Positions 13,041 to 45,294 of a stretch of DNA of 64,000 nucleotides are shown piece after piece. Within the stretch, counting starts at the first letter, position 1. Every line of letters begins with the position of its first letter. The stretch lies in assembly GCA_965224345.1 (NCBI GenBank), contig CBDCYU010000003.1:905748-969747 (forward strand), given 5' to 3'. Below the pieces are notes generated by a model. That model did not search any database and was not told the origin of the DNA. It saw only the letters and a list, made by a program, of their open reading frames with translations. This DNA comes from Dehalococcoidia bacterium (GTDB lineage Bacteria; Chloroflexota; Dehalococcoidia; Lucifugimonadales; CBDCYU01). Both the position numbers and the translations under genes were made by a program.

Positions 13041-13069
13041 TTGACCCTTTCGCAAGCAGGTGGTAGCAT
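13041..13069 (+). promoter_or_regulatory. Sigma70-like promoter for the ATPase gene pair
   Basis: TTGACC (13041-13046), 17-nt spacer, TAGCAT (13064-13069). Confidence 0.45.
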
Positions 13070-13145
13070 ACCGCAAAACGCACAGGAATGGCGGCTGCAG
13101 GCTCCGCGGTTATCCGCGATCATAGACCCTCAGGCTCTCGACGCG

Positions 13146-15223: not shown

Positions 15224-15235
15224 CCGGCGCCTCCG

Positions 15236-16366: not shown

Positions 16367-16369
16367 GGA

Positions 16370-17362
16370 TCAGCGCTCCTCCATCCGTATACGTGGGTCC
16401 TGCCATGCCAGCAAGACGTCCGAGAGGAGCGTGCCGATGATGGTCAATACGCTCAGCATCAGTATGAAGGCGCCGGCCAGGAACATGTCCTGCGCCAGGA
16501 GAGCGCCCAGGAGCAGCGGCCCCGCCGTGGGCAGGCTCAGGACGATGGCAACGATGAGCCCGCCGGAGAGCAGCTGCGGCAAGGACCAGCCGACGGTGCT
16601 TATGAAGGGGTTGAAGGCCAGGCGCACCGGGTACTTGAGGATCAGCCGCCACTCGGAGGCTCCCCTGGCGCGGGCCGCCTCCACGTAGGGCTTGTTGAGC
16701 TCGTCCAGCAGATTGTTGCGCATCACCCTGATGAGGTAGGCGGTCTCGCTGGTCCCGACTATCAGCCCCGGGAGCCACAGGTGCTTGAGCAGGTCGATGA
16801 TCTTGGCAAGGCTCCACGGGGCCCCCACGAACTCCGGAGAGAATAGGCCGGACAGCACGTCCCCCGTGAAAACGAAGATGGTCCACAGAACGACGAGGGC
16901 TACCAGGAAGTTGGGTGTGGCGAGGCCGAGGAATCCGACTCCTGTGAACAGGTAGTCGAATATGGAGTACTGCTTGACGGCTGAGAATATTCCGACGGGG
17001 ATAGCTATGATCCATGCGAATACGAGAGCGGTGGAGGCTACGGACAGCGTGAGGGCCATACGCTCCCAGATGATGTCCGACACGGGGCGCTCCCACACCA
17101 GGGAGACGCCGAAGTTGCCGCGCAGAACGATGTTCCTCATCCACTTGAAGTACTGTATGTGCAGGGGCTGGTCGAGGCCGTAGTGGAGCTTCAGCGCTTC
17201 AATCTCTTCCTCGTCGACCTCCTCGCCGCTTTGCTGGAGGGCCGCGATGTAGCTTGTGAGGAAGTCTCCCGGAGGCGCCTGAATGATCATGAAGGAGACG
17301 ATGGTGAGGATGAACAGCATGGGCACCGCAAGGCCGATCCTGCGTATTATGTATTGGCCCAT
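16370..17362 (-). CDS. Peptide-type ABC transporter permease (DppB/OppB-like)
   Basis: MGQYIIRRIGLAVPMLF start, YVEAARARGASEWRLILKY, C-terminal DPRIR. Confidence 0.9.
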   Translation of the reverse strand: MGQYIIRRIGLAVPMLFILTIVSFMIIQAPPGDFLTSYIAALQQSGEEVDEEEIEALKLHYGLDQPLHIQYFKWMRNIVLRGNFGVSLVWERPVSDIIWERMALTLSVASTALVFAWIIAIPVGIFSAVKQYSIFDYLFTGVGFLGLATPNFLVALVVLWTIFVFTGDVLSGLFSPEFVGAPWSLAKIIDLLKHLWLPGLIVGTSETAYLIRVMRNNLLDELNKPYVEAARARGASEWRLILKYPVRLAFNPFISTVGWSLPQLLSGGLIVAIVLSLPTAGPLLLGALLAQDMFLAGAFILMLSVLTIIGTLLSDVLLAWQDPRIRMEER

Positions 17363-17383
17363 CTACGGCGCACCTCAAGCCAT

Positions 17384-17407
17384 GGGTTGTGCCCCGGGGC
17401 ACAACCC
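17384..17407 (-). other. Perfect 24-nt palindromic stem-loop in the SBP-permease intercistronic region
   Basis: GGGTTGTGCCCCGGGGCACAACCC. Confidence 0.5.
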
Positions 17408-17449
17408 GTTTCGTCCACGACGTCCAGCTCGGTGTTCGTCTCTAGCCTC

Positions 17450-17478
17450 AGAGGGGCGACCCTTCGAGTCGCCCCTCT
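17450..17478 (-). other. Stem-loop 34 nt downstream of the SBP stop
   Basis: AGAGGGGCGAC-ccttcga-GTCGCCCCTCT, an 11-bp perfect stem with no T tract. Confidence 0.5.
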
Positions 17479-17511
17479 ATCCCTGTCAACTTAGGGGCTC
17501 GCCGCCCCGCG

Positions 17512-19545
17512 CTACTGCTTGAAGAACCTCTGCTCCGGCCTGAAGGTGTACCACCACTGGTGGGACATATCGCTCGGAACGTTGCGGAAGTTGTTCTTGG
17601 TCACGACCAGGCCGAATATGGTCGGCGTGTTGCCCACGGTGCCGATAGTCCAGAGGTTGTCGACGTTGATGCGGAAGATCTCCTGGCCCAGCGCGACCTT
17701 CTCGTCGAATGTGGCCGAGTCTCCCTTGTCGTGGAGCTCGATCACCTTCGCCAGGTCTCCCCAGGGCTCGATGCCCTTCTCGCCCCCGGTGGCGTACCAG
17801 GTGCCCGTGAGGGGCCCTATCAACGTGCCGCTGTTGAAGGGCATAGTCCGATAGCGGCCCGTGAAGAGGTGCTCTGCGCCGCCGGCGTCCCAGATCATCA
17901 CCTGCAGCTCGTTTGCCCCCCTGCGGGCGACGTAGGCCGAGCGCTCGTTCTGGGTGAACTTCGTCTTGACTCCGACGTCCTCCCACATCTCCTTCACCAG
18001 CTCGCCGGTCTGGGGCCAGAAGGTGCCGAAGAGCTCGACCGCCGTGATCTCGATCTCCGCCACATCGCCACTGTCCAGCAGGCGGAAGCCGTCGGCGTTC
18101 TTGTCCGGCAGGATCCCGTCCAGTATCTCGTTGGCCTTTGCGGTGTCGTACTCTGTGTACTTGAAGGCATACTCGTCGCCAGGGTAGTAGGGATTGTTGG
18201 ACGGCACCACCATCTGGCGGCTCTCTCCAGCACCGAGGAAGACCAGCTGGAGGATCTTGTCGCGGTCCACCGCGTGGGAGAGGGCGATGCGGAAGTCGTT
18301 GTTCCGCATCAACTCGCCGATAGCCGGATCACCGGCTTCGTCCTGGCCATAGTTCTGGTTGAAGTGCAGCCCGGCGTCGGAGCCGGAAGCGCCCGGCCAG
18401 TACAGCACCCGGTAGTCCCCAGATTCGGTGTTCTTCTGCAGCGTCGGCACCGAGTCCATCCGGAGCTGCCTCGGCTGGTGGTCGAACTCTCCCGCTATGG
18501 TCCTCAGCGTCAGGACGTCTATGTCCTCCACCAGCTCGGCCACGATCTTGTCGATGTAGGGGAGCTGGTTGCCCTCCGGGTCCACCCCGTAGTAGTAGGG
18601 GTTACGCTCCAGGATCATCTGCTGCTCCCCACCCCTCGTCTTGGGCTGCCACGGGAAGAGGGACGGCGGGCCGGGCGCACCGCTCATGGTGGTTCTGCGG
18701 TCGTGCTTGTCCTCGAACAGCTGCGTCCACTTGTCGAAGCCCGCATCGGCCGTCAGCTTGTCGACCGCCGCTTGGCCGGCGTAGTCCGGGTGGAACTGCT
18801 CCATGTAGTGCCGGGGCAGATACGTCAGCGCCCCGTAGGACCACATGGCTATGTACTCTTCGAAGAGCCGGAAGTTGCCGGCGAAGGTAAAGGTGAAGGT
18901 GGTGTCGTCCACCACTTCGAACTTGCCAAGCTCGTCCAGGGTCCTGAACTGGGACGGCTTGACCGGCCAGAGCTCGTCGTTGAGGATCGTGTCCTCCCAC
19001 CAGAACTTGACGTCATCCGAGGTGAACGGCTCGCCGTCGTACCACTTGTGCCCCTTGCGGAGCTTGAAAGTGAAGACCTTGCCGTCGGGGGAGATCTCGT
19101 AGGACTCCGCCACCTGGGGTATGATCGTCACCTGGTCCGGGTCTATCGATAGCAGGCCCGCCGAGGTCCTGGAGGCCTGCACGGCCCTGTCGGTCCGGGC
19201 GGCGTAGGCGAACCTCCAGGTCCCGCCGTACTCTCCGATCTCCTCGAACACCGGCACCACCAGCGGGTTCTCCGGCAGCCGCTCCTCCACGGGGGGCAGG
19301 GTTCCGGCGCTCACCATGGCGGCCAGGTCGGGAGACTCGCTGTACCCCATCATCTCCGTCTCGTTGGCCATCGTCTCCGCGGCGGGCGTCTCAGCGGCCA
19401 TCATCTCCGCGGTTGGCGTCTCTTGGGCCATCATCTCCGCGGCGGGCGTCTCAGCGGCCATCATCTCCTCTTCTTCGCCGCCGCCACAAGCCGCCAGCAC
19501 CAGTAAGGCCGCCAGCGAAACCACTATCCAAGTCAACTTTCTCAT
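17512..19545 (-). CDS. Family-5 (Dpp/Opp-type) ABC substrate-binding lipoprotein with AETPAAEMM decapeptide-repeat linker
   Basis: Lipobox VLAAC. LERNPYYYGVDPEGNQLPYIDKIV block. About 70% identical by eye to the next gene. Confidence 0.9.
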   Translation of the reverse strand: MRKLTWIVVSLAALLVLAACGGGEEEEMMAAETPAAEMMAQETPTAEMMAAETPAAETMANETEMMGYSESPDLAAMVSAGTLPPVEERLPENPLVVPVFEEIGEYGGTWRFAYAARTDRAVQASRTSAGLLSIDPDQVTIIPQVAESYEISPDGKVFTFKLRKGHKWYDGEPFTSDDVKFWWEDTILNDELWPVKPSQFRTLDELGKFEVVDDTTFTFTFAGNFRLFEEYIAMWSYGALTYLPRHYMEQFHPDYAGQAAVDKLTADAGFDKWTQLFEDKHDRRTTMSGAPGPPSLFPWQPKTRGGEQQMILERNPYYYGVDPEGNQLPYIDKIVAELVEDIDVLTLRTIAGEFDHQPRQLRMDSVPTLQKNTESGDYRVLYWPGASGSDAGLHFNQNYGQDEAGDPAIGELMRNNDFRIALSHAVDRDKILQLVFLGAGESRQMVVPSNNPYYPGDEYAFKYTEYDTAKANEILDGILPDKNADGFRLLDSGDVAEIEITAVELFGTFWPQTGELVKEMWEDVGVKTKFTQNERSAYVARRGANELQVMIWDAGGAEHLFTGRYRTMPFNSGTLIGPLTGTWYATGGEKGIEPWGDLAKVIELHDKGDSATFDEKVALGQEIFRINVDNLWTIGTVGNTPTIFGLVVTKNNFRNVPSDMSHQWWYTFRPEQRFFKQ
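19366..19468. repeat. 30-bp tandem repeat (about 3.5 copies) encoding the AAETPAAEMM linker
   Basis: Copies at 19366-19395, 19396-19425, 19426-19455 and a partial copy from 19456. Unit is ggccatcatctccgcggcgggcgtctcagc. Confidence 0.8.
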
Positions 19546-19631
19546 CCGGTCCTCCTAAATAGGCTATCGGGGCTCTCCCAGAGCTGCCCGAGAATATGCG
19601 CAGGTAAATCCTGCGACCATCCAGTGGGCAG

Positions 19632-19660
19632 ATATTAGACTCCCACGGATGCGCTGTCAA
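19632..19660 (-). promoter_or_regulatory. Near-consensus promoter between the tandem SBP genes
   Basis: On the minus strand: TTGACA (19660-19655), 17-nt spacer, TAATAT (19637-19632). Confidence 0.5.
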
Positions 19661-19693
19661 TCCCAAGCCGTTGGTACGAAATGGACGTCGACT

Positions 19694-21709
19694 CTAGCGG
19701 AAGAAGAACTGCTCCGGCCTGAAGATGTACCACCACTGGTGCGGCTGGTTGCCCGGCACATTGCGGAAGTCGTTGCTGACGACCGCGATACCCAGCACGG
19801 CGGGCGTGTTACCCACGGTACCGATGGTCCAGAGGTTGTCCGCCTGCATTCGGAAGACCTCCTGGGCAAGCTCGATCTTCTCGTCGGGCGTTGCGCTGTC
19901 CGCCTTGTCGTGCAGCTCGATCACCCGCGCCAGCTCTCCAGTGGGCTCGACGCCCTCCTTTCCGCCGCTGGCGTACCATACCCCCGACAGGGGTGCGATC
20001 CTGGAGACGCTGCCGAAGGGCATGGTCCACCAACGGTAGGTGAAGAGGTGCTCGATGCCGCCGGTGTTCCAGATTGCTACCTGCTGCTCGTTGGACCTGA
20101 TCCTGGTGTAGTGGGCGCTGCGCTCCTCCTCCCTGTAGTCGACCTTGAGCGCCACCTCTTCCCACATCTCGGATACAAGCTCGCCGACCTGGGGCCAGAA
20201 GGTGCCGAAGAGCTCGACCGCCGTCAGCTCCAGGACGGCCTGGTTGCCGTCGGGCAGCAGCCTGAAACCGTCCGTGCCCTTGTTGGGCAGGATACCTTCG
20301 AGGATCTCGTTCGCCTTGGCCTGGTCGAACTCTGTGTACTTGAAGGCGTACTCGTCGCCGGGATAGAAGGGGTGACCCTTGGGGACCACGTTCTGTCGGC
20401 CCTCGCCCACCCCGAGGAAGACCAGCTGATTGATCTTATCGCGGTCTATCGCGTGGGACAGGGCGATGCGAAAGTCGAGGTTGCGGATCAGGTCGCCCAT
20501 TGCGGGCTTGGCGTCGTAGTTCTGGTTGAACATCAGCCCGGCGTCCTGGCCCTCTGCGCCGGCCCAGAAGATCACGCGGTAGCCCTGCTCGTCCGCACTC
20601 TTCCGCAGGGTAGGGACCGTGTCCATCGCAAGCTGCCGGTACTGCATGTCGAAGTCCCCGGCGATGGTCCGCAGCGACAGCACGTCGATGTCCTCTATCA
20701 GGTCCGCCACCACCCTATCGATGTAAGGGAGCTGGTTGCCATCGGGGTCCACGCCGTAGTAGTAGGGATTGCGCTCGAGGATCAGCTGCTGGTCTCCTCC
20801 CCTGCTCCTGGGCGACCACGGGTAGAGGGAGACCAGCTCGGCATTGCTGATGGTGTTTCGCCGGTCATGCTTGTCCTCGAAGAGCTGAGCCCACTTCTCG
20901 AATCCGGCGTCCGCTACCAGCTTGTCCACGTCTGCCTGAGGCGTGTAATCCGGGTGGAACTGCCGCATGTAGTGCTTCGGCTGGTACGCCAGCTCCCCGT
21001 AGGCGCGCATGCCTACATACTCTTCGAAGAGCCGGAAGTTGTCGGAGAAGCTGAAACTGAAGGTCGTGTCATCCACGATATCCAGCTTCCCCAGCTCTCC
21101 GCCCGTCCTGTACTGAGATGGCTTCACGGGCCAGAGCTCGTCGTTCAGGATTATGTCCTCCCACCAGAACCTTACGTCCTCGGTGGTGAAGGGCATCCCG
21201 TCGGACCACCTGTGGCCCTCGCGAAGGTTGAAGGTGAAGACCTTGCCGTCGGGGGATATGTCGTAAGACTCCGCCACCTGCGGAATGATCGTGACCTGGT
21301 CCGTATCGATCGACAGCAGCCCGGCGGATGTCCTGAGGGAGCCGTGGAACCGGTCGGTCCGTGCTCCGTATGCTAGGTTCCAGGTGCCGCCGTACTGCCC
21401 GATCTCCTCGAAGACCGGCACCACCAGCGGGCTCTCCGGCAGCCGCTCCTCCACCGGAGGGAGGGTCCCGGCGCTCACCATGCTCGCCAGATCAGGGGAT
21501 TCCCCGTAGGTCATCATTGCGGCGGGGGCCTCGGTCGGCATGGCGGTCGGTGCGGGAGCCTCGGTGGGCATCGCCGTAGGAGCCGCCATCACCTGCGTCG
21601 GCTCCGGGACTGCGGGGACTGCGGTGGCCTCCTCCTCGGCGTCGCCGCAGGCCGCCAAGGCCAACAGCAAGACGAACAGTGTAAGCGTCGTTAGTGCGAT
21701 TGCTTTCAT
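19694..21709 (-). CDS. Family-5 ABC substrate-binding lipoprotein (tandem paralog)
   Basis: ATG at 21709 preceded by GGAGG. Lipobox ALAAC. PTAMPTEAPA repeated linker. Collinear with 17512-19545. Confidence 0.9.
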   Translation of the reverse strand: MKAIALTTLTLFVLLLALAACGDAEEEATAVPAVPEPTQVMAAPTAMPTEAPAPTAMPTEAPAAMMTYGESPDLASMVSAGTLPPVEERLPESPLVVPVFEEIGQYGGTWNLAYGARTDRFHGSLRTSAGLLSIDTDQVTIIPQVAESYDISPDGKVFTFNLREGHRWSDGMPFTTEDVRFWWEDIILNDELWPVKPSQYRTGGELGKLDIVDDTTFSFSFSDNFRLFEEYVGMRAYGELAYQPKHYMRQFHPDYTPQADVDKLVADAGFEKWAQLFEDKHDRRNTISNAELVSLYPWSPRSRGGDQQLILERNPYYYGVDPDGNQLPYIDRVVADLIEDIDVLSLRTIAGDFDMQYRQLAMDTVPTLRKSADEQGYRVIFWAGAEGQDAGLMFNQNYDAKPAMGDLIRNLDFRIALSHAIDRDKINQLVFLGVGEGRQNVVPKGHPFYPGDEYAFKYTEFDQAKANEILEGILPNKGTDGFRLLPDGNQAVLELTAVELFGTFWPQVGELVSEMWEEVALKVDYREEERSAHYTRIRSNEQQVAIWNTGGIEHLFTYRWWTMPFGSVSRIAPLSGVWYASGGKEGVEPTGELARVIELHDKADSATPDEKIELAQEVFRMQADNLWTIGTVGNTPAVLGIAVVSNDFRNVPGNQPHQWWYIFRPEQFFFR

Positions 21710-21765: not shown

Positions 21766-22767
21766 TCACGCGCACTGGAGTTCTCTGGACTTTGGCTCGT
21801 CCATTATCTCACCGGGCTCCAGCGGATACGCCTCCTTCTGGTATACCTGGACTCGACTCGACAGGTGATCGACAATGTACATCCGCCCCTCGTCGTCCAG
21901 TCTGACCGAGATAGGCTCCCTCAGCCGCTTCTGTGGCTCCTGAGTGATCATCTCTCGAAGCCGAAGGGTCTTGGGATTGGAGCGCACGTACTCTATGGCC
22001 GCCTTGCCCAGGGTCGCATCCCCGATGAACTTGTCGACGTACCGGCCCGTGGCCGAGAACTGCTGGACCCTGTCGTTGCCCCAGTCGGCCACGTAGATGT
22101 CGCCGTCTCCGTCCACCTCCACGCCTGCGGGCCTGATGAGCTGTCCGTCCCCGCTCCCGGTGGAGCCGAGCTCGAAGATGAACTCTCCGTCTGCGGTGAA
22201 CTTCTGGACTCTGTCGTTCCTCCAGTCGGCTACGTAGACGTCCCCAAGCTCATCTATAGTGATCCCCCAAGGCATATCGAACTGCCCCTCGCCGTCTCCG
22301 CGGCAGCCCCACTTGAGCTGGAAGGCGCCGTCTCTGGTGAACTTCTGGACCCGGTGGTTCCTCGTGTCCGCGACGTAGATGTTCTCGTCCTTGTCCAGAC
22401 CGATTCCCGAGGGTCGGTTGAGCTGCCCGTCGCCGTCGCCGGGCTCGCCCCAGCTTCCCAGGAATTCACCCTCGCTGCTTAGGGTCGAGATCCGGTGCAA
22501 CGCCTCGTCGGACACGATCAGGTTCTCGTCCCTATCTCGGACGATGGCCGCTGGCCATGTGAACTGGCCGTCGCCGGAACCCACTCCGCCGATCATACCC
22601 AGGTCCTCGTCGTCCCAGTTGGTCCTCCTGATTCCGTCGGTCAACAAGACGTACAGTCGCCCCTCCTCACCGATGGCGATGTCCTTCGGCGACCTCAGCA
22701 TGAGGAGGTGTCCCAGGGTCGTAACGTAAGGAAACCCCGCTCTCAGCAGCGCGTGCGGCCTGCTCAT
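21766..22767 (-). CDS. NHL-repeat beta-propeller protein, no signal peptide
   Basis: Repeated blocks GxGDGQ(F/L)xxPxG(I/V)xxDxxGxxYVAD..N.RVQKF, about 5-6 times. Confidence 0.85.
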   Translation of the reverse strand: MSRPHALLRAGFPYVTTLGHLLMLRSPKDIAIGEEGRLYVLLTDGIRRTNWDDEDLGMIGGVGSGDGQFTWPAAIVRDRDENLIVSDEALHRISTLSSEGEFLGSWGEPGDGDGQLNRPSGIGLDKDENIYVADTRNHRVQKFTRDGAFQLKWGCRGDGEGQFDMPWGITIDELGDVYVADWRNDRVQKFTADGEFIFELGSTGSGDGQLIRPAGVEVDGDGDIYVADWGNDRVQQFSATGRYVDKFIGDATLGKAAIEYVRSNPKTLRLREMITQEPQKRLREPISVRLDDEGRMYIVDHLSSRVQVYQKEAYPLEPGEIMDEPKSRELQCA

Positions 22768-22830
22768 CGTCTAACTCTTCCCAGGTGTGCCTTGCCGCGT
22801 CGGAGTGGCAAATGCGTCATAGGACCCTGC

Positions 22831-23964
22831 CTATCCTGCGAACACCGATACGCCTTCGAAGCTGCCTCTGATCACCGCGGCGGGGTCCACTCCCAGCCAC
22901 TGCTCCAGTAGCGTGCCGTAGACGCCGCGAAAGTCGATCGTGTGTCGAAGATCACCCTCGACCCACTGATCGGGAGACAACGGTGGGTACTCGGAGTACA
23001 ACCCTCCCTTGACCCGGTCGCCGACGATGAAGGCGCCGCCTCCGGCGCCGTGGTCGGTGCCGCTCCCGTTGTCTACGAAGCGGCGTCCGAACTCTGAGAA
23101 CACCATGAGGACGACCTCATCGGATGCGTCGTGGTCCCTCATGTCCCGAATGAAATCGCTGATTGCGGCTGAGAGGTCCCTCAGCAAGACAGGGTGGCGG
23201 GCCACCTGGCTGGCATGCGTATCGTAGCCGCCGTGCTGCGTGTAGAAGACCCGCGCCCCAAGTCCTGCCAGATGCACTCTGGCCACGTCTCTGAGGCTCT
23301 GGGCTATAGGACTGTTGGCGTACTCCACGTCGGAGGAGTAACGGTCGGGAGCGGCCTTTAGCATGTCGGCGCCTACCAGCACGTCGTGAGCGGTATCCAT
23401 CAGGTACTCGTGGACCCGCCGCGTCCCTATCGCCTGGGCGTACATGCTCTTGAAGACCTCCAGCGCCTCTTCTCGCTGCCTCTCTTCGGCCATGCCGCCC
23501 ATTATGCCGTAGCTGTCCAGGTTTCCCACGGAGGTAACCGGTACGCCGGGAGCTGCCATCGCTCGCGGCAGCCCTCTACCGATGTTTATTCCGGTCAGGA
23601 CGTTCTCCTTATGCGGGTCCAGCTCGCGGACGGCCTTCCCCAGCCAACCCTCGTTTACAATCTCCTCCGGTTCGCAGGTGTGCCATATGTCCATCGCGCG
23701 AAAGTGAGACCGACTCGAGTCTGGATACCCGATCCCCTGGACGATAGCTACGCTGCCCTCATCGTACAGCTCCTTCAGGAGACCGGCGCTGGGATTGAAC
23801 CCAACCTCGTCGTCGATGGGCAACACCTGGTCTTGGCCCACTGCCACCGTGGGCCTGTTGTCGTAGTACACGTCGCTGGTGTAGGGAACGAGGGTGTCCA
23901 TGAAGTCGTTGCCCCCCGTAAGCTGAACGATCACCAGTACGGGTTGCTTGGAGCCATGTACCAT
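22831..23964 (-). CDS. DUF1501 domain protein (alkaline-phosphatase/sulfatase superfamily), no Tat signal
   Basis: LVIVQLTGGNDFMDT, SRSHFRAMDIWHT, GGYDTHA, FSEFGRRFVDNGSGTDHGAGG. Confidence 0.9.
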   Translation of the reverse strand: MVHGSKQPVLVIVQLTGGNDFMDTLVPYTSDVYYDNRPTVAVGQDQVLPIDDEVGFNPSAGLLKELYDEGSVAIVQGIGYPDSSRSHFRAMDIWHTCEPEEIVNEGWLGKAVRELDPHKENVLTGINIGRGLPRAMAAPGVPVTSVGNLDSYGIMGGMAEERQREEALEVFKSMYAQAIGTRRVHEYLMDTAHDVLVGADMLKAAPDRYSSDVEYANSPIAQSLRDVARVHLAGLGARVFYTQHGGYDTHASQVARHPVLLRDLSAAISDFIRDMRDHDASDEVVLMVFSEFGRRFVDNGSGTDHGAGGGAFIVGDRVKGGLYSEYPPLSPDQWVEGDLRHTIDFRGVYGTLLEQWLGVDPAAVIRGSFEGVSVFAG

Positions 23965-23994
23965 GAGACCTACCTCTCTCGAACGGTGCTCATT

Positions 23995-25386
23995 CTATGC
24001 GAACTGATATTCGGCAGAGGAGACTATGAGCTGGAGCATCTCCACAACGCGAGCGGCGCTCTCCTCCTTCGAGCCTGGTTCGAACCGTAGCGGATCCTGC
24101 GCTTCGGCACGCGCTATGAGAGCATCCCGCGTCGCGTTGGCGACGTCGATGGGGCCAATCAGATCCAGGCACTTGTCGACGAGCTCCTCGGGTGAGAGGG
24201 GACGTCCAGCGGAGCGCAATCGGGCGATGATGTCCTGGACCCCTGGCTTGGTAACGTCGGATACCTCATCGACCGCGAAGTTGACTCGTTCGTTCAAGGC
24301 GCCGCTATCGATCCACTCCATACCTGTATGCCAGCCTTCCACGGTAGGTGGATTGAACAGCTGCTGTCCCATGTTCATCGAGCCATTGAGCTTGCCGAAG
24401 TCCGGATCGGGGAACCGGTGGGTTCCCACCAGCTTGATGATCCCCGACATCAGCTCCACCGGGCTCTTGATCTTCCTGAACCGGGCCTCTTTGAAGGAAT
24501 CGAGGTTGAATAGCGTCCTGAGCACCGGGCGCATCTGACCGCCAGAGCTGCTGTACGCCTCGACCACTGCATCGACGGTGTCGGGGTCCTGTGGGGGTAT
24601 CCGGTTCCAGGTTGGCACGGGGGGCTCGTCGGCGACGAAGAAGTTGTACAGATGCCTGGCGACGAACCTGGGTGTGGCTGGCTGCCTCACGATGATGTCT
24701 ATGATGTCCTCGCCGTTGAATCGGCCCGTCTCTCCAAGGAAGGTCTTCTCGCCGTCGTCGTGGTCTTCCTCGAGATACTCGAACTCGCTGGGGTACACGT
24801 TGTAGGGGTGATGGGAGATGGGCTGTGTGAAGGTCCATCCGGTAAAGGCGTGGGCGGCCATCTTCACGTCCTCTTCCGTATAGTTCCCCTCGCCCATCGA
24901 GAACAGCTCCAGAAGCTCGCGGCCATAGTTCTCGTTGGGATCGCCCTCGCGATTCTCATTGTTGTCCAGCCAGTAGATCATCGACGGGTCCCTGGACAGG
25001 TCGATCAGGATCGTCCGTAGGTCCGACAGTCCGTTTCTGCGGAACGTGTCTATCTGAGCATACGAGGAGGGAGGATGGGCGGCCTTGGGCCACGACGTGG
25101 CGAACACCTGGTGCCAGAAGAGCGCCATCTTCTCCTCCAGCGGGCGTTTGCTGTTGATCATCCGGTACACCCAGTAGGCGTTCGATCCTGCCAGCCCCGG
25201 CGGAGCGACTGCCGTGTATCGGCGGACGACGTCGTCTTCGATGTCCGGGAACCGCTCCGGGGCGAGCAGGTCATCAACTATCTCAGCGTACCCCTTCGAA
25301 GCTAAGTCCTCCAGATCGCTCCTGGTGGCGCCAAAGCCGGCGCGGCGCATCAGATGGGAAATGAGGGCAAGGTCGCTACTGGACAC
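23995..25386 (-). CDS. DUF1800 domain protein
   Basis: LMRRAGFGAT, ALFWHQVFATS, MIYWLDNNEN, NENYGRELLELFSMG, HDDGEKTFLG. The GTG at 25386 has a GAGGA RBS 6 nt upstream and makes the N-terminus collinear with the paralog. The longest ORF would start at TTG 25461. Confidence 0.85.
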   Translation of the reverse strand: MSSSDLALISHLMRRAGFGATRSDLEDLASKGYAEIVDDLLAPERFPDIEDDVVRRYTAVAPPGLAGSNAYWVYRMINSKRPLEEKMALFWHQVFATSWPKAAHPPSSYAQIDTFRRNGLSDLRTILIDLSRDPSMIYWLDNNENREGDPNENYGRELLELFSMGEGNYTEEDVKMAAHAFTGWTFTQPISHHPYNVYPSEFEYLEEDHDDGEKTFLGETGRFNGEDIIDIIVRQPATPRFVARHLYNFFVADEPPVPTWNRIPPQDPDTVDAVVEAYSSSGGQMRPVLRTLFNLDSFKEARFRKIKSPVELMSGIIKLVGTHRFPDPDFGKLNGSMNMGQQLFNPPTVEGWHTGMEWIDSGALNERVNFAVDEVSDVTKPGVQDIIARLRSAGRPLSPEELVDKCLDLIGPIDVANATRDALIARAEAQDPLRFEPGSKEESAARVVEMLQLIVSSAEYQFA

Positions 25387-25496
25387 GGTCAGTCCTCTAC
25401 ACTCACTAGCATGGCGTCCGAACCGAACCGGCGTTAAGGCGAGGGCGCTACCCCGTTCCAACGCCGGATGGTGTCGGCGGGAGTAGGATTTCGGCT

Positions 25497-25525
25497 ATTA
25501 TAGCCATTTTATGCTATGCGTACAA
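25497..25525 (-). promoter_or_regulatory. Promoter for the leftward DUF1800 triad
   Basis: On the minus strand: TTGTAC (25525-25520), 17-nt spacer, TATAAT (25502-25497). The -10 lies inside the palindrome GGCTATTATAGCC (25493-25505). Confidence 0.45.
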
Positions 25526-25526
25526 A

Positions 25527-25555
25527 TTGACAACAACTGGTGGCGAGATTATAGT
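25527..25555 (+). promoter_or_regulatory. Promoter for the rightward DUF1800 triad
   Basis: TTGACA (25527-25532), 17-nt spacer, TATAGT (25550-25555), in an AT-rich intergenic region. Confidence 0.5.
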
Positions 25556-25614
25556 ACGGCATAGGTATATAGGGGTTGACCGATGCCCTAATCCGCTAGC
25601 TGGGAGGCACGCAG

Positions 25615-27018
25615 ATGGCTGACAGTGACATAGCGTTGATGGCGCACCTGATGAGCCGCGCTGGATTCAGGGCCGGCCGCGACGAGCTGGAGGCCCGGGC
25701 GGCAAATGGCTACGAGGCCACTGTGGAGGAGCTGCTCAGACCGGAGGAGCAGGAGCCTGTCGACAGGTACGAGCTCCTGAGGTACCAGACGTGGACGTGG
25801 AAGCCTGGGACTGTCCAGGGCATGGGCCACTCTACTTGGCTCCACCACATGATAAACACGCAGGCGCCCCTCCAGGAGAAGATGACGCTCTTCTGGCACG
25901 GTGTGTTCGCCACCGGGGTTTCGAAGGTCGACCACTGGGACGAGATCACCGACATGGTCGATATGCTCCGGGAGAAGGGCATGGGGAGCTTCCGAGACAT
26001 CCTGCTGGAGGTGGCCAGAAACCCGGCCATGATCTTCTGGCTGGACAACAACGAGAACCACGCCCGCGCGGTCAACGAGAACTGGGGAAGGGAGCTCCTG
26101 GAGCTCTTCAGCATGGGAGTGGGCAACTACACCGAAGACGACGTGAGAGTGTGCTCCCGGGCCTTCACGGGTTGGACGATCACCCCCAAGCTGCCCAGGT
26201 TCCCGATGGGCCGGTTCGACTGGTACTTCGAGTATAGGCCCGAGGACCACGACGACGGCGAGAAGAGCTTCCTAGGCCACACTGGCCGGCTCGATGGGGA
26301 AGACATCATCGACATAGTCTGCCGGCAGCCGGCCACGGCCAACTTCATCTGCCGTCACCTGTACAACTACTTCGTCGCCGACGAGGCGCAGGTGCCCGCA
26401 TGGTCGGTCACGCCGCCCAGGGACCCCGAAGCCATCGACACCCTGGTGGAGACCTTTACGGAGTCGGGCTACGACATCCGCTCGACCCTCCGGGTTCTTC
26501 TCAACTCGGACTTTTTCAAGGAGGCGCGCTCCGCACGGATGAAGAGCCCCGCCGAGGTCGTTGTGAGCACCCTGAGGCTGGCCGGAGGCTTCGAGTTCCC
26601 GGCGCCGGGGATCGGCAACATGGCCAGGCAGACGGGCTACATGGGCCAGGACCTGCTGAACCCCCCCAGCGTGGAGGGCTGGCACACGGGCTCCGAGTGG
26701 ATAAACAGCGGCTCGCTAATGCGGCGCACCAACTTCTTTGCGGACCTGGTCAGCGACGTGGACAGGCCAGGCATCCAGTCGATCATCGAGGATCTGAGGT
26801 CGCAGGGGGAGCTGTCTCACGAGGAGCTCGTGGACAGGTGCCTGGACTTGATGGGTCCCCTGGACGTCGACGGCGACACCCGGATGGAGCTGGTGAGCCA
26901 CGCCGCCGCCGAGGGGCCGCTCCGCTGGGGCCAGAACGGTGACGCCCCGGCCGCGGCGCAGAGGGTGTCGGAGATGCTGCAGCTGATAGTGTCGCTGAGG
27001 GACTACCAGTTCGCTTGA
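25615..27018 (+). CDS. DUF1800 domain protein (paralog)
   Basis: Same blocks as 23995-25386 (LMSRAGFRAG, TLFWHGVFATG, MIFWLDNNEN, NENWGRELLELFSMG, HDDGEKSFLG). GGGAGG RBS. Confidence 0.9.
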   Translation: MADSDIALMAHLMSRAGFRAGRDELEARAANGYEATVEELLRPEEQEPVDRYELLRYQTWTWKPGTVQGMGHSTWLHHMINTQAPLQEKMTLFWHGVFATGVSKVDHWDEITDMVDMLREKGMGSFRDILLEVARNPAMIFWLDNNENHARAVNENWGRELLELFSMGVGNYTEDDVRVCSRAFTGWTITPKLPRFPMGRFDWYFEYRPEDHDDGEKSFLGHTGRLDGEDIIDIVCRQPATANFICRHLYNYFVADEAQVPAWSVTPPRDPEAIDTLVETFTESGYDIRSTLRVLLNSDFFKEARSARMKSPAEVVVSTLRLAGGFEFPAPGIGNMARQTGYMGQDLLNPPSVEGWHTGSEWINSGSLMRRTNFFADLVSDVDRPGIQSIIEDLRSQGELSHEELVDRCLDLMGPLDVDGDTRMELVSHAAAEGPLRWGQNGDAPAAAQRVSEMLQLIVSLRDYQFA

Positions 27019-27131
27019 TCTTCCTAGCGCCCAGGACCCTTCCATTCGCCTCTCCCGAGCGTGGATGAGGGGTTGTGTGGGCAGCACTGCCGGGGTCTGT
27101 CGTAGGAGCCCAAGCTTAGAAGGAGACGTAG

Positions 27132-28268
27132 ATGGCCACAGCAACGAAAGCCCCGGTCGTCGTCGTATTGCAGCTCTCGGGCGGCAACGACTATATGAAC
27201 ACCGTGATCCCGTACACCGACTCGATGTACTGGGACTACCGTCCTACCGTCAGGATTCCCGAGGAGGAGATCTTGACCCTGGACAATGCAATCGGCCTGC
27301 ATCCCCAGATGGCCCCCATCAAGGAGCTGTACGATAGGGGAGACGTGGCCATAGTTCACGGAGTCGGCTACGAGGACTCGCCCCGCTCCCACTTCAGGTC
27401 CATGGACATCTGGCACACCTGTGAGCCCGACGACCTTGGCACAGAGGGCTGGCTGGGTCGGGTGATCCGCGACGTCGACCCGCACAAGGAGAACGTCGTC
27501 ACCGGCGTCAGCTTCGGGCCCAGTATGTTCAGGGCGATGGCGCTGCCGGGTGTGCCCGTGGCAACGGTCGACGATCTGGACAACTACGGTCTGCTGACGG
27601 GGATCTCCGATCAGCGGCAGCGCGACAGAATACTGGACAGGTATAAGCGCCTCTACGGCCCGGCCATCGGCAGCGGCCGCGTCATGGAGTTCCTGGGCCA
27701 GACCGGACTGGACGCTCTCAAGGGCGCCGACATCCTCAGCGCAGCGCCGGAGAGGTATTCGTCGACCGTCGAGTATGCCGATACGACTATCGCGCGCAAG
27801 CTCAAGGGAATCGCCCAGATCCATATGGCCGACCTGGGCACCCGCGTCTTCTACTGCGATCACGGGAGCTTCGACAGCCACTCCAACCAGATGGACATGC
27901 ACGCGACGCTGTGGAAGGACGTGTCGGAGGCCGTGGCGGACTTCTTCGACGATCTCAGGCAGCACAACGCGGCGGACAACGTGATAATGCTCCTCTTCTC
28001 CGAGTTCGGCAGGCGCACTCACGACAACGGCTCCGGGACGGACCACGGCGCCGCCGGCGCCGCCTTCGTCATCGGCGACCCGATCAGGGGAGGCCAGTAC
28101 GGCGAGTACCCCTCAACGAGGCGGGAAGACCTCCAGCAGGGCGACCTGGTGCCCAACACCGACTTCCGGGGCCTCTACTCGACGATACTGGAGGAGTGGA
28201 TGGGCCTCGACGCAAAGCCCATCGTCGAGGGCGCCTTCGAAAAGCCGGCTTTCATAGGCAAAGCCTAA
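27132..28268 (+). CDS. DUF1501 domain protein (paralog), no Tat signal
   Basis: VVVLQLSGGNDYMNT, PRSHFRSMDIWHT, GSFDSHS, FSEFGRRTHDNGSGTDHGAAG. Confidence 0.9.
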   Translation: MATATKAPVVVVLQLSGGNDYMNTVIPYTDSMYWDYRPTVRIPEEEILTLDNAIGLHPQMAPIKELYDRGDVAIVHGVGYEDSPRSHFRSMDIWHTCEPDDLGTEGWLGRVIRDVDPHKENVVTGVSFGPSMFRAMALPGVPVATVDDLDNYGLLTGISDQRQRDRILDRYKRLYGPAIGSGRVMEFLGQTGLDALKGADILSAAPERYSSTVEYADTTIARKLKGIAQIHMADLGTRVFYCDHGSFDSHSNQMDMHATLWKDVSEAVADFFDDLRQHNAADNVIMLLFSEFGRRTHDNGSGTDHGAAGAAFVIGDPIRGGQYGEYPSTRREDLQQGDLVPNTDFRGLYSTILEEWMGLDAKPIVEGAFEKPAFIGKA

Positions 28269-28363
28269 GCGCCGATAGGGACCGGCCCCTAAGCCAAGAC
28301 TATTCTGATACCCCCAAAAAGTCACTCAACCAGACGGTGGTAGATGCCCCTATACGAAAGAAA

Positions 28364-29398
28364 ATGCTTACACAGACAGTAGCCGGCAGGACCTACGACT
28401 TCAGCCACGTTGTGGGAGGGCGGTACATAGGCCGTCCCGTGTCGCTGGCCGTGGCCAGCGAGGATACGGTCTATTCGCTGGACCGCCCCAGCGAGAACAT
28501 CGCCGACGTCCCCTGGAACAAGACCGCGTCGGGAGCCAAGGTCAGCGTCTGCAAGATCGGCTCCGCGTCCGGTGAAGAGGAGTTCAAGCTCCAATTCAGC
28601 CAGTACGGCGACGGCGACGGCGAAGTCATATGGCCCACCGGCATCGCCCTGGACAGCCAGGAGAACGTCTACGTCACCGACGAGTGGCTCAACCGGATAT
28701 CCATCTTCGACGAGGACGGCGTCTTCCAGACCTCTTGGGGCGTGGCCGGCGCGGGCGACGGGCAGCTGAACCGGCCCGCGGGGATCGCTGTGGACTCGGA
28801 CGACAACCTGTTCATCGTCGACAGCCTCAACCATCGGGTCCAGAGGTTCACTAGGGATGGGAGCTACCTCGGCCAGTGGGGCGCCCACGGGGACGGGGAG
28901 GGCGAGCTCGACTCACCCTGGGGCATCGACATCGATCGCGAGGGATTCGTCTACGTCGCCGACCACAAGAACCACAGGGCGCAGAAGTTCACGCCCGATG
29001 GGGGGTACGTGGCCCAGTTCGGAAGCTACGGCTCCGGTCCCGGCCAGCTGACCCGCCCATCCGACGTCGCGGTGGACCCCGACGGAGATGTCTACGTCTG
29101 CGACTGGCCCAACAACAGGGTCCAGATTTTCGGCGCGGAGGACGGCTTCTTTGCCACCCTTATCGGCGACGCCCAGCAGCTGTCCATGTGGCATCAGAAT
29201 ATCGTTGACGCCAATGCGGACGTGATCAAGGCGCGGCGCAGGGTCTACACGCTGGAGCCGGAGTGGCGGTTCGCTTTCCCGACCGCCGTCACCTTCGACG
29301 CGGCCAGGAGCAGGCTACTGGTGGCCGATACTCATCGGTCCCGCATCCAGATATACAACAAGCTCCAGGGCTACATGGAGCCCCAGTTCAACCTCTAG
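28364..29398 (+). CDS. NHL-repeat beta-propeller protein (paralog), no signal peptide
   Basis: ATG at 28364 (MLTQTVAG). NHL blocks GDGDGEVIWPTGIALD, GAGDGQLNRPAGIAVD, GDGEGELDSPWGIDID, GSGPGQLTRPSDVAVD, each followed by N.RVQ.F. Confidence 0.85.
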   Translation: MLTQTVAGRTYDFSHVVGGRYIGRPVSLAVASEDTVYSLDRPSENIADVPWNKTASGAKVSVCKIGSASGEEEFKLQFSQYGDGDGEVIWPTGIALDSQENVYVTDEWLNRISIFDEDGVFQTSWGVAGAGDGQLNRPAGIAVDSDDNLFIVDSLNHRVQRFTRDGSYLGQWGAHGDGEGELDSPWGIDIDREGFVYVADHKNHRAQKFTPDGGYVAQFGSYGSGPGQLTRPSDVAVDPDGDVYVCDWPNNRVQIFGAEDGFFATLIGDAQQLSMWHQNIVDANADVIKARRRVYTLEPEWRFAFPTAVTFDAARSRLLVADTHRSRIQIYNKLQGYMEPQFNL

Positions 29399-32271: not shown

Positions 32272-32324
32272 GACATCGAACCTCTATCGCTGAGAGCGGA
32301 TCTCCGGCCTAGGGCGTGTTCACA

Positions 32325-32705
32325 CTAACGTAGCGCATCGAAGATGAGGGCAAACAGGATGAACCCGAGGAAGAGCGTGTCGAGCTTCTCAAAGCGAGAG
32401 AAGATGCGGCGAAACCCCTTCAACCGGCGGAACAACCGCTCGATTTCGTTCCGCCTCTTGTACATCTCCCGATCGTACTCCCAAGGGTCAACTCGGGTGC
32501 TCAGGGGCGGAACAACCGGCGTGAACCCCAGCGCCAACGCCAGTTGGCGGGTCTCATTTCCCTCGTATGCCCGGTCCATTATCAGGAACGGCTTCCGGTT
32601 CTGTGACCCGAGGCGTGTCAACAACTTCCGCCCCTCTGGCGCGTCGTGGGCCTGTCCTGGAGAGAGGGAGAACGTTACGGCTGTTCTAGCATCCGCGGCA
32701 ACCAT
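32325..32705 (-). CDS. IS5-family transposase orfB (DDE domain), expressed as an orfAB fusion by -1 frameshift
   Basis: A -1 shift after ALKK reads NGPQAIGKSRGGWTTKIHMVAADARTAV..., then MDRAYEGNETR and NEIERLFRRLKGFRRIFSRFEK, which are classic IS5-family blocks. Confidence 0.85.
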   Translation of the reverse strand: MVAADARTAVTFSLSPGQAHDAPEGRKLLTRLGSQNRKPFLIMDRAYEGNETRQLALALGFTPVVPPLSTRVDPWEYDREMYKRRNEIERLFRRLKGFRRIFSRFEKLDTLFLGFILFALIFDALR

Positions 32706-33081
32706 ATGAATCTTGGTGGTCCAACCGCCACGGGACTTGCCGATGGCCTGGGGTCCGTTTTTTTAACGCACCCGTACCATCGGGATGGACCTTGACGATG
32801 GTGCTGTCCATCGAAACCGCCTCGAGCTTGATTCGCACTATCTGCTCCCGTTGCAGATATTCGAATACCCGGTCTAGCACCCCATTCTTTGACCAACGGT
32901 TCATCCGCATGTATACAGTGTGCCAGTTGCCAAATCGAGGCGGCAACCCCCGCCACTTGCAGCCCTGCTCGGCGACATACAAGATGGCGTTGAGAACTTG
33001 CAGGTTCGGCAACTTGACGTTGCCACGTTGAACGGGAAGGATTGGTGCAATAAGTTGGTACTGAGCTTCTGTGATTTCCAT
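32686..33081 (-). CDS. IS5-family transposase orfA (DUF4096-type N-terminal domain)
   Basis: LNAILYVAEQGCKWRGLPPRFGNWHTVYMRMNRWSKNGV. A7 run at 32758-32764 on the minus strand (TTAAAAAAACGG). Confidence 0.85.
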   Translation of the reverse strand: MEITEAQYQLIAPILPVQRGNVKLPNLQVLNAILYVAEQGCKWRGLPPRFGNWHTVYMRMNRWSKNGVLDRVFEYLQREQIVRIKLEAVSMDSTIVKVHPDGTGALKKRTPGHRQVPWRLDHQDSYGCRGC

Positions 33082-33124
33082 TCCCGGATTGTAACATGAT
33101 CTGGTTAATTAGTGTGAACAGGCC

Positions 33125-34220: not shown

Positions 34221-35360
34221 TCAGCGGGTCGAGTAGGGGTCCGCCGCATCTCGCAGACCGTCGCCCATGAAGTTGAAGCCCAGGATAGCGATGATAACGA
34301 CGAGGGCAGGCAGGAGCAGCCAGGGGGCCGACGCCACCGACTGGAGGTTCTGGGCCTCCTTCAGCAGCACTCCCCAGCTCATGACCGGAGGCCGGAGGCC
34401 CAGTCCCAGGAAGCTGAGGGACGTCTCCGCGATGATGATCGCGGGTATCGCCAGCGTCGTGGTCGCGATGATGTGGCTCATGAAGGAGGGAAGCATGTGG
34501 CGGAAGATGATCCGCAGCCTAGATGTTCCGTAGAGGCGCGCCGCGGTCACGAAGTCCTCCTCTCGCATGGCGAGGAACCGACCGCGCACCTGCCGCGCCA
34601 GCCCGGTCCAACCGATGAAGGAGATGATGATGGTAATGGCGAAGTAGACCCTGATCACAGACCAGTCCTGAGGGACCGCCGCCCCCAGCGCCAGCCACAG
34701 CGGAATCGTCGGCATGGAACGGACGAACTCGATGAGACGCTGGATCAAGACGTCTATCCAGCCTCCCGCATAACCTGATATTCCTCCCAGTAGAACGCCC
34801 AGAACCAAGCTTATCAGGACACCCAACAAGCCGATGGACATGGATATCCTCGTGCCATACATGATCCTCGACCACATATCCCTCCCCATGCGGTCGGTGC
34901 CCAGGGGATAGAAGGTAGCGTGTCTCCCCTCGTAGTCGACCCCCATCAGGTGGCGGTCGGTCTTCCATAGAAGACCAAAGAGCTTGTACTCGTGCCCCCG
35001 GGTGAACCACTTGATGTAATGCTTCTGGCTCGTGTCCTCCTCGAACTCCATGATGGCGGTCTCGGGGTTCCGTTCCGCGTTGATCATGTAGACGTAGGGA
35101 CGGGGCGCCCAGCCGTCGAAGAAGTGCACCCTCTGCGGCTTGACGAAGGTGCGCTTGGAGTCCGTCTCGACCGGATCGTGAATGGCGAGGAACTCTGAGA
35201 AGAGTGCGATGAAGTAGAAAAAGCCTATGAGCGCGGTCGCCGCCACCGCCAGCTTGTGTCTTCGAAAGCGCCACCACATCAGCTTCCATTGGGAAGCGAT
35301 GAACATGCGCTCTTCTTCGGAGACGGTGTTGAGGGGTACAGCTTCCGGTCTGGTTGCCAT
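34221..35360 (-). CDS. Peptide-type ABC transporter permease (DppC/OppC-like)
   Basis: QWKLMWWRFRRHK, LGTDRMGRDMWSRIMYGTRISM. ATG at 35360 is 2 nt after the upstream stop. The extension to 35399 is a frame shadow of the conserved WIDPRIR end of the upstream gene. Confidence 0.9.
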   Translation of the reverse strand: MATRPEAVPLNTVSEEERMFIASQWKLMWWRFRRHKLAVAATALIGFFYFIALFSEFLAIHDPVETDSKRTFVKPQRVHFFDGWAPRPYVYMINAERNPETAIMEFEEDTSQKHYIKWFTRGHEYKLFGLLWKTDRHLMGVDYEGRHATFYPLGTDRMGRDMWSRIMYGTRISMSIGLLGVLISLVLGVLLGGISGYAGGWIDVLIQRLIEFVRSMPTIPLWLALGAAVPQDWSVIRVYFAITIIISFIGWTGLARQVRGRFLAMREEDFVTAARLYGTSRLRIIFRHMLPSFMSHIIATTTLAIPAIIIAETSLSFLGLGLRPPVMSWGVLLKEAQNLQSVASAPWLLLPALVVIIAILGFNFMGDGLRDAADPYSTR

Positions 35361-35362
35361 AT

Positions 35363-36355: not shown

Positions 36356-36464
36356 GGTTATCTATACCCCAAGAGCCTGCTTGTAGCTGCCATTGACAAC
36401 ATCGCCTGTTCAGCCGCAGCAGATGACTGCTGCAATTGCTTTCACTCGCCACCGCCTGATGCAT

Positions 36465-36498
36465 GTTCGGGGCCATCCTGAGAAGGATGGCCCCGAAC
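36465..36498 (-). other. Perfect 14-bp stem-loop downstream of the SBP gene
   Basis: GTTCGGGGCCATCC-tgagaa-GGATGGCCCCGAAC, 33 nt past the SBP stop, no T tract. Confidence 0.5.
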
Positions 36499-36530
36499 AG
36501 TTTACCTCGGCGGTACGGAGCAGTAGCCGC

Positions 36531-42384: not shown

Positions 42385-42407
42385 CTTCAACTTCAGGACG
42401 GCCAACG

Positions 42408-45289: not shown

Positions 45290-45294
45290 GCTCC

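Follow-up and report, generated by a model that had tools for sequence, protein, structure and literature searches.

Two mirror-image gene triads in a Dehalococcoidia genome

The 64,000-nucleotide stretch of contig CBDCYU010000003.1 from a Dehalococcoidia bacterium analyzed here (hereafter the window) contains two divergently transcribed gene triads, each composed of a DUF1800 gene, a DUF1501 gene and a gene for an NHL-repeat beta-propeller in this order. The left triad spans positions 21766-25386 on the minus strand and the right triad positions 25615-29398 on the plus strand. A preliminary description of this DNA had interpreted the locus as a mirror-image duplication reflected about an AT-rich promoter region of about 230 bp, and the open reading frames (ORFs), their Pfam matches and the BLASTP comparison of the paralogs bear this out. 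ORF listing and translation recovered all six genes at the following coordinates:

21766-22767, minus strand: NHL six-bladed beta-propeller, left copy (333 aa, pI 4.7; Pfam NHL, E 6e-37)
22831-23964, minus strand: DUF1501, left copy (377 aa; Pfam PF07394, 85.9 bits, E 4e-24)
23995-25386, minus strand: DUF1800, left copy (463 aa, GTG start; Pfam PF08811, E 7e-100; Shine-Dalgarno-like GAGGA upstream)
25387-25614: divergent intergenic region (228 bp) with back-to-back promoter-like sites
25615-27018, plus strand: DUF1800, right copy (467 aa; Pfam PF08811, E 1e-99)
27132-28268, plus strand: DUF1501, right copy (378 aa; Pfam PF07394, 89.3 bits, E 4e-25)
28364-29398, plus strand: NHL beta-propeller, right copy (344 aa, pI 4.6; Pfam NHL, E 1.5e-39)

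The family assignments are clear for all three genes. Both DUF1800 copies cover profile positions 1-418 of 419 (335.5 and 334.7 bits to PF08811), both DUF1501 copies score far above the PF07394 gathering cutoff of 27 bits, and the NHL copies reach 124 and 132 bits to PF01436 with three to five repeats scored singly; NCBIfam holds no model for DUF1800 or DUF1501. Shine-Dalgarno-like motifs precede five of the six starts. The motif of the right NHL gene is weak, and the same 344-aa gene is called in a 99%-identical locus (L001). Homologs of the left DUF1800 protein measure 463-467 aa, including one identical sequence (P0121, 100%) of 463 aa; its frame is open upstream to a TTG at 25461, with no signal in this extension.

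The spacer between the triads has a GC content of 0.54 (core 0.45) versus 0.63 for the window. It carries a plus-strand promoter-like site (TTGACA-17-TATAGT, 25527-25555, 11/12 matching positions) and a minus-strand site (TTGTCA-16-TAAAAT, 25533-25506, 10/12), which have the -35 area in common and are the top two sigma-70-like matches in a 16-kb scan. No conserved operator-like repeat was found in the spacer, and scans of the 64-kb window for tRNAs and Rfam families gave no match.

The left and right copies share 52% identity for DUF1800 (E 3e-171), 52% for DUF1501 (E 2e-158) and 48% for NHL (E 6e-82), and inverted repeats between the triads are still 72-76% identical at the DNA level. With orthologs in other phyla the left copy shares up to 68% identity, versus 51% with the right copy, so the duplication must be old and both lineages have been maintained, as the preliminary description had proposed from the paralogs. 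The same mirror layout recurs in a different Chloroflexota metagenome-assembled genome (MAG; L082, positions 158-6680), with right-type DUF1501 and DUF1800 genes on the minus strand and a left-type DUF1800-DUF1501-NHL triad on the plus strand. This contig stops before any right-hand NHL gene would show, and its spacer cannot be aligned with that of the window.

A conserved third gene accompanies the loss of the Tat signal

DUF1800 and DUF1501 are known as a conserved pair of unknown function linked to the pathway of twin-arginine translocation (Tat), and such Tat-exported pairs are widespread in Proteobacteria, Bacteroidota, Actinomycetota and Acidobacteriota (PMC5122149). We surveyed relatives of the triad by scanning one genome per GTDB species and taking the best 80 of more than 587 matching stretches, in which six-frame ORFs were searched with the window proteins. 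The canonical control set comprised 84 DUF1800-DUF1501 loci, namely four annotated plasmid loci (Miltoncostaea, Chondrinema, Azospirillum and Vibrio) and 80 related metagenome loci. About 70 of the 80 triad loci belong to Dehalococcoidia, SAR202 or other Chloroflexota MAGs; the others come from Poribacteria (4), Entotheonella/Tectimicrobiota (3), Latescibacterota (2) and one short gammaproteobacterial contig. Many carriers are sponge-metagenome MAGs and some stem from open-ocean and deep-water samples, including free-living SAR202 from ALOHA, ETNP, 4000 m and Caspian samples.

Nearly all 80 loci show DUF1800, DUF1501 and NHL in this order on one strand. DUF1800 lies directly upstream of DUF1501 on the same strand in the window, in 76/80 triad loci and in 54/56 canonical loci. 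Within 2.5 kb downstream of DUF1501, 70/73 triad loci have an NHL gene on the same strand, versus 0/49 canonical loci (Fisher p = 6e-31). Among the deviating loci, one is cut by a contig end (L051) and one holds DUF1501 alone (L074), while rearranged orders keep all three genes (DUF1501-DUF1800-NHL in L029 and L044, DUF1800-NHL-DUF1501 in L069). Two further loci contain arrays of DUF1800-NHL pairs without a DUF1501 gene of their own, beside a single DUF1501 gene (L012, 2457-13519; L056, 5722-13955). These arrays hint that DUF1800 and NHL may form a variable, specificity-determining pair and that DUF1501 may be shareable. Several assemblies hold two or three separate triads.

The presence of the NHL gene coincides with the absence of an export signal. 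Using the same criterion for both sets (an RR or KR motif followed by a hydrophobic stretch with a Kyte-Doolittle value of at least 1.2), a Tat-type signal was detected on 0/77 DUF1501 proteins with intact N-termini in the triad clade versus 77/77 in the canonical set. In the left and right DUF1501 genes, the xxGGND motif is preceded by an in-frame stop codon at a distance of 24 and 14 codons, and the median distance from stop to GGND in the clade is 27 codons. None of the six window proteins has a 19-residue Kyte-Doolittle window above 1.2, and all six are soluble and acidic; the neighboring substrate-binding protein (SBP) genes, which served as a positive control, carry clear lipoprotein signals. 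The earlier observation that the window proteins lack signals thus withstands a re-annotation of the starts, and the NHL gene proves to be a fixed third partner whose adjacency tracks the loss of the Tat signal.

The same boundary appears in the wider DUF1501 family, which comprises 13,057 representatives when clustered at 50%, one for every cluster of related proteins. The left DUF1501 protein has thousands of homologs with lengths of 377-380 aa, but the representative search returned only two full-length signal-less representatives (53% and 45% identity). From 43% identity downwards, representatives measure 400-450 aa with 35-60 extra N-terminal residues, and in the nearest outgroup (38-43% identity) these extensions are classical S/TRRxFL Tat leaders, in line with the expectation that DUF1501 normally carries a Tat signal. 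No DUF1501 match by sequence or profile was found in the PDB except the Tat leader of AioB, which was the only hit of a profile that included canonical members. Identity between the clade and canonical members ranges from 25 to 43%. The triad marks a compact signal-less branch of DUF1501, a family whose other members are Tat-exported and have DUF1800 as their sole partner.

The preliminary description had counted the signal-less state of DUF1800 among the special traits of the triad. This part does not stand, since 51/54 DUF1800 partners of Tat-bearing DUF1501 proteins also have no signal and no hydrophobic N-terminus; the remaining 3/54 start with a hydrophobic or lipoprotein-like N-terminus (control loci L086-L169). 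A signal-less DUF1800 protein beside a Tat-bearing DUF1501 protein points to association before export and suggests that canonical DUF1800 is co-exported by hitch-hiking on DUF1501. Such complexes are known from the redox enzymes HybO/HybC and DmsA/DmsB, which contain cofactors and in which one subunit with a twin-arginine signal exports a signal-less partner. The canonical pairs resemble them in having one Tat signal and a signal-less partner, with co-export inferred from sequence alone, whereas the triad clade would have abandoned export. Hitch-hiking seems not to have been noted before for DUF1800 and DUF1501, and these Tat pairs provide the best available argument for a DUF1800-DUF1501 complex. 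On this hitch-hiking view, the loss of one signal peptide would suffice to relocate the whole enzyme to the cytoplasm.

The three genes also share their history. Across 72 triads, the pairwise-identity matrices of DUF1800, DUF1501 and NHL correlate with r = 0.87-0.89. They have stayed together through inheritance, rearrangement and transfer across no fewer than four to five phyla, and the carriers are mostly sponge symbionts and SAR202-type Chloroflexota, often with several copies per genome.

Remote resemblance of the DUF1501 model to the alkaline-phosphatase superfamily

The AlphaFold2 model of DUF1501 (predicted local distance difference test score, pLDDT, 75; predicted template modelling score, pTM, 0.83) was compared with the PDB using Foldseek. 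All 36 matches with E <=1e-3 belong to the alkaline-phosphatase superfamily (template modelling score, TM, about 0.4; E from 6e-6) and include S1 sulfatases, LtaS, YejM/PbgA, alkaline phosphatase, NPP, PhnA (phosphonoacetate hydrolase) and MCR-1. The residues D20, S86, H87, D248, H250, R294, R295, N299, T303, D304 and H305 are invariant in the window copies and four Tat-bearing members, down to proteins of 25% identity, and are at least 97% conserved in the 72 triads. The catalytic-type residues are thus intact in both window copies, and the metal-binding-type positions singled out in the preliminary description (D20, S86-H87, D248/H250 and D304-H305) are among the invariant ones. By analogy with the superfamily, D20, S86, D304 and H305 would make up the nucleophile-side metal site.

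DUF1501 is not a formylglycine sulfatase, because it has SSRSHF or SPRSHF where the C/S-x-P-x-R motif would be; no match to the Pfam Sulfatase family (PF00884) was obtained either. Elsewhere in the window, two type I sulfatase genes on the minus strand (48567-49967 and 50112-51482) do encode the CSPSR formylglycine motif. With 11 and 2 in-frame codons before their starts, they leave no room for a signal peptide and are apparently cytoplasmic, which indicates that this organism runs alkaline-phosphatase-superfamily chemistry in the cytoplasm.

Compared with known superfamily members (S1 sulfatases, LtaS/EptA, NPP and PhnA), DUF1501 would share the core fold predicted by its model, along with an Asp after strand 1, a putative Ser/Thr-type nucleophile position and a C-terminal Asp-His pair. 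It differs from them in its low identity (8-13%, TM about 0.3-0.45), the absence of a sequence-level PDB match, the missing C/S-x-P-x-R motif and its dependence on co-conserved partner genes.

Properties of the DUF1800 and NHL proteins

DUF1800 is predicted to be all-alpha with two small hairpins (AlphaFold2, pLDDT 82, pTM 0.86), and neither a sequence match nor a fold match was found in the PDB (best fold match E 0.43, TM 0.11). About 25 charged or His residues are at least 97% conserved across the 72 triads; invariant positions of the protein include H92, D141, N142, E152, E157, H209, D210 and H353. An assignment as an HD-domain or phosphodiesterase-like protein, considered for its invariant H209-D210, was rejected: phosphodiesterase fold matches are at chance level and the motif lies in a predicted beta-hairpin. 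The right DUF1800 copy gives a sub-threshold match to PSD1 (17.7 bits versus a cutoff of 28.5, E 0.0026).

The NHL proteins have their closest PDB sequence relatives in the NHL domains of TRIM71, Thin, TRIM2/3 and PknD, with a further sequence match to PAL, and four to five blades align to TRIM71. Against the animal TRIM71/LIN-41 NHL domain, the left copy reaches a summed E of 9e-86, with single three-blade stretches at about 1e-20 to 1e-24; this similarity of a bacterial protein may reflect either consensus-like repeats or inter-domain transfer. Both copies also exceed the threshold of the SGL (SMP-30/gluconolactonase) family (43 and 40 bits versus 26.3) and match Vgb lyase, arylesterase and PAL more weakly, while a ScyF match in NCBIfam is far below cutoff. 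The homologs are single-domain proteins of 330-340 aa without a fusion partner, and the window copies lack a hydrophobic N-terminus. Conserved residues mostly belong to the structural blade motif D-x2-N-x-R-x-Q. The proteins are acidic (pI 4.6-4.9), which argues against TRIM-like RNA binding.

These proteins share six blades with TRIM71/LIN-41, Brat, the PknD sensor and PAL (E 9e-86 to 1e-24). Unlike TRIM71, PknD and PAL, they are stand-alone bacterial proteins of about 335 aa that are acidic and predicted to be cytoplasmic, have no RING/B-box, kinase or monooxygenase part, and their genes share an operon with two enzyme-like ones.

Genomic neighborhood and the Opp-type importer

The left triad is followed by genes of an Opp/Dpp-type ABC importer, which are assigned by Pfam and lie outside the conserved cassette:

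19694-21709 and 17512-19545, minus strand: SBP_bac_5 lipoproteins
16370-17362 and 15236-16366, minus strand: OppB/OppC-like permeases

The first SBP gene starts at 21709, 56 nt after the stop codon of the left NHL gene, with a Shine-Dalgarno motif and a lipoprotein signal. The preliminary description had taken the left triad to be co-transcribed with this importer. This was not borne out: 5/81 loci have SBP_bac_5 homologs within 10 kb and 11-15/81 have other Opp components (permease, ATPase), the second SBP gene has its own promoter-like site, and the OppD/OppF ATPase genes (13041-15223, plus strand) converge with OppB/OppC (15236-17362, minus strand). The two convergent gene groups are 12 nt apart, also in L001. 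Because importer adjacency is not conserved elsewhere, Opp coupling is not a property of the cassette, and a coupling in this genome is possible.

Clustering of 1,335 neighbor ORFs revealed no fourth conserved gene or transporter in more than 20/81 loci, and the genes directly flanking the cassette vary. Recurring families, each in at most 20/81 loci, are SDR, MFS, Opp-type ABC, luciferase-like monooxygenase, enolase-superfamily, aldo-keto reductase and CoA-transferase proteins, which are the usual background of the SAR202-type repertoire. A class-III aminotransferase gene beside the right triad was discarded as a cassette partner, as it recurs in just 5/81 loci.

Several loci (L028, L036, L041, L046, L055, L059, L065, L066 and L067) contain an MNT/HEPN-like pair, composed of a 112-aa ORF that appears MNT-like by eye and a HEPN gene of 136-153 aa. 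The pair adjoins the cassette, in most cases directly downstream of NHL and usually on its strand; it lies at about 12.2-13.2 kb in most of these loci (9.0-9.3 kb in L028). One genome group (L002-L005) has a second, more distant NHL-repeat gene on the opposite strand near the triad (about 13.2-14.7 kb), alongside phosphotriesterase-family, Meth_synt_2 and class-III aminotransferase genes.

Three Opp/Dpp-type ABC systems are located within the 64 kb (13041-21709, 34221-39227 and 40036-48514), one of which includes a DUF885 gene (42480-44216) inside its operon. Their SBP_bac_5 lipoproteins are unusually long (about 670-780 aa) with N-terminal stalks of low-complexity repeats, for instance VVKEVxVPGETVVV units at 40036-42384 and 36531-39227 and Glu/Met/Ala-rich repeats at 17512-19545.

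A possible cytoplasmic enzyme complex and alternative explanations

The evolutionary and architectural part of the explanation is near certain, while the biochemical part has about one chance in three of being right. In the ancestral secreted form, a signal-less DUF1800 protein would have left the cytoplasm within a pre-folded heterodimer, by means of the Tat signal on DUF1501. In the signal-less branch, the Tat signal would have been lost, leaving the complex in the cytoplasm, and an NHL propeller would have been recruited as a third subunit. DUF1501 would be the catalytic subunit, a divergent metallo-enzyme of the alkaline-phosphatase superfamily with Ser86 as the likely nucleophile; Asp20, Asp304 and His305 would make up one metal site, and Asp248 and His250 may contribute to a second. 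DUF1800 would be an obligate partner forming part of the substrate site, and the acidic propeller might provide substrate recognition or a follow-up or coupled step. The target would be a phospho-, sulfo- or phosphono-ester-type group on small organic compounds, which would be cleaved or transferred. Import could be provided by whichever importer is nearby, in this genome the Opp-type ABC system, and the two window copies may handle different substrates.

That the triad is a soluble cytoplasmic multi-subunit metallo-hydrolase or transferase acting on small imported esters is the likeliest explanation, and as a whole it seems to us about an even bet. The conserved catalytic-type residues and the co-evolution of the three genes fit the "three-protein hydrolase" suggested in the preliminary description, as which the triad may function. 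Less likely is the wider proposal of a new cytoplasmic three-subunit family that arose by loss of the signal and capture of a propeller, was passed on by horizontal transfer and multiplied as paralogs in sponge symbionts and deep-ocean SAR202, and degrades a class of marine organic phospho-, sulfo- or phosphono-esters there.

Several observations weigh against an enzyme complex of this kind. Confidence in the DUF1501 model is moderate, with an overall pLDDT of 75 and values under 50 near the putative nucleophile loop (81-103). Its matches by fold are distant (TM about 0.4, E at or above 6e-6) and include the non-catalytic YejM/PbgA. The usual two-metal spacing in the superfamily is D-x3-H, from which the D-x-H of D248/H250 differs. 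Genes of one operon would be expected to co-evolve even if their products made no physical contact. Finally, no transporter or regulator is consistently linked to the cassette in the 81 loci, which makes the imported-substrate step weak.

An alternative explanation is that the three proteins are independent sequential enzymes of one catabolic pathway that form no complex, with NHL as a propeller enzyme of the lactonase, lyase or phosphotriesterase type and DUF1800 as an enzyme of a new fold. The above-threshold SGL match of NHL, its weaker similarity to Vgb lyase, arylesterase and PAL, and the many invariant His, Asp and Glu residues of DUF1800 would agree with this, and the intergenic gaps of 30-113 nt require no translational coupling. 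However, the signal-less DUF1800 proteins in 51/54 Tat pairs are hard to explain without association before export, the best NHL matches by far are the non-enzymatic TRIM-NHL and PknD propellers, and the conserved NHL residues are mostly those of the structural blade motif. We regard separate enzymes as unlikely, but as the main alternative.

It is improbable that the cassette is non-catalytic, with DUF1501 as a pseudo-enzyme or binding module and the triad acting as a sensor, a scaffold or in metal or cofactor handling. Periplasmic YejM/PbgA domains are indeed among the best fold matches and no substrate-specific neighbors are conserved. In addition, two DUF1800 proteins that are possible triad members (W4LJC4 and W4LDN1) are reported to be abundant in a mineralising vesicle fraction of Entotheonella (PMC12981691). 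Yet a nucleophile and a metal-ligand-like set that stay invariant down to 25% identity are the pattern of an active enzyme.

NHL repeats of sponge symbionts are usually listed among the enriched eukaryotic-like domains, possibly involved in host manipulation (PMC5524777). The NHL protein could accordingly be a host effector whose adjacency to DUF1800 and DUF1501 is incidental, given its match to animal TRIM71 (E 9e-86) and the many sponge MAGs among the carriers. We consider this very improbable: it has neither a signal peptide nor a fusion partner, its adjacency is kept in 70/73 loci with a co-evolution of r about 0.87, the triad also occurs in free-living SAR202, and its pI of 4.6-4.9 speaks against TRIM-like RNA binding. 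A mobile anti-phage defence cassette, for which its self-contained nature, variable contexts, spread across phyla and the adjoining MNT/HEPN-like pairs (about 8 loci) might speak, has just as little chance. PADLOC gave no match for DUF1800 or DUF1501 and for NHL just repeat-level matches (E 1e-4 to 1e-5), the relatives are periplasmic enzyme pairs, and several paralogs per genome rather fit metabolic diversification as in SAR202. A reading in which the proteins are in fact secreted, and their signals are missing only through start-codon artefacts, can practically be dismissed: a few loci do have long open upstream frames, but these are Arg-rich read-through of the upstream gene without a hydrophobic core, the median stop-to-GGND distance is 27 codons, the uniform test gave 0/77 and homolog lengths cluster at 377-380 aa.

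Relation to known systems and implications

The triad shares with the canonical Tat pairs both protein families, the DUF1800-then-DUF1501 order, the D/S-H/D-x-H/T-D-H residues and the signal-less DUF1800 protein. It differs from them in the missing Tat signal on DUF1501, the attached NHL gene, its predicted cytoplasmic location and the identity of just 25-43%. A second known context is found in Planctomycetes and Verrucomicrobia, where DUF1501 accompanies PSCyt1/PSCyt2/PSD1 modules with many copies per genome and unknown function (PMC3542564). These modules likewise combine DUF1501 with a large partner, and PSD1 is the family weakly matched by the right DUF1800 copy. The triad partner, in contrast, has no cytochrome-like CxxCH domain, carbohydrate-binding modules or signal, and NHL is added as a third gene; Pfam gave no PSCyt match in the window DUF1800 proteins. 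What is new is thus a cytoplasmic, NHL-bearing version of a known but uncharacterised enzyme-like pair. In agreement with the preliminary description, which knew of no such third partner, our literature search found no paper linking DUF1501 to NHL in the library covered, and the literature found on DUF1501 or DUF1800 gives no function.

The DUF1501 family is very large, enzyme-like and uncharacterised, with no solved structure and no known substrate. As soluble cytoplasmic proteins, the members of the triad should lend themselves to expression more readily than the Tat-dependent forms, and a strictly co-conserved third partner could reveal which class of substrate is involved. Comparison with the canonical pairs provides the first sequence-based argument for a co-exported DUF1800-DUF1501 complex. 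In addition, the triad is a multi-copy marker common to SAR202 and several sponge-symbiont phyla, which bears on the processing of dissolved organic matter and host-derived compounds, and it cautions against taking all NHL proteins in symbiont genomes for host-mimicking effectors. If the wider proposal of a new three-subunit family is correct, a considerable part of the "eukaryote-like NHL proteins" counted in sponge symbionts would be metabolic subunits instead of host-interaction factors, and DUF1800 would have a new protein fold and take part in catalysis or substrate binding.

Other features of the window

A defence island is located on the plus strand. It comprises an HKD(PLD)+Snf2 helicase gene (54137-57544; PADLOC C3a139, E 3e-48) and a type IIG restriction-methyltransferase gene (58225-61629; E 1.6e-269), separated by a 207-aa ORF with no family match. 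An IS5-family element of 812 bp (32313-33124) immediately follows the stop codon of UxuA. It consists of a DUF4096 ORF and a DDE_Tnp_1 ORF with an A7 slippery run between them; inverted repeats form its termini (GGCCTGTTCACAC...), and the CTAG target is duplicated. As the element is absent from the otherwise 99%-identical locus L001, its insertion is recent.

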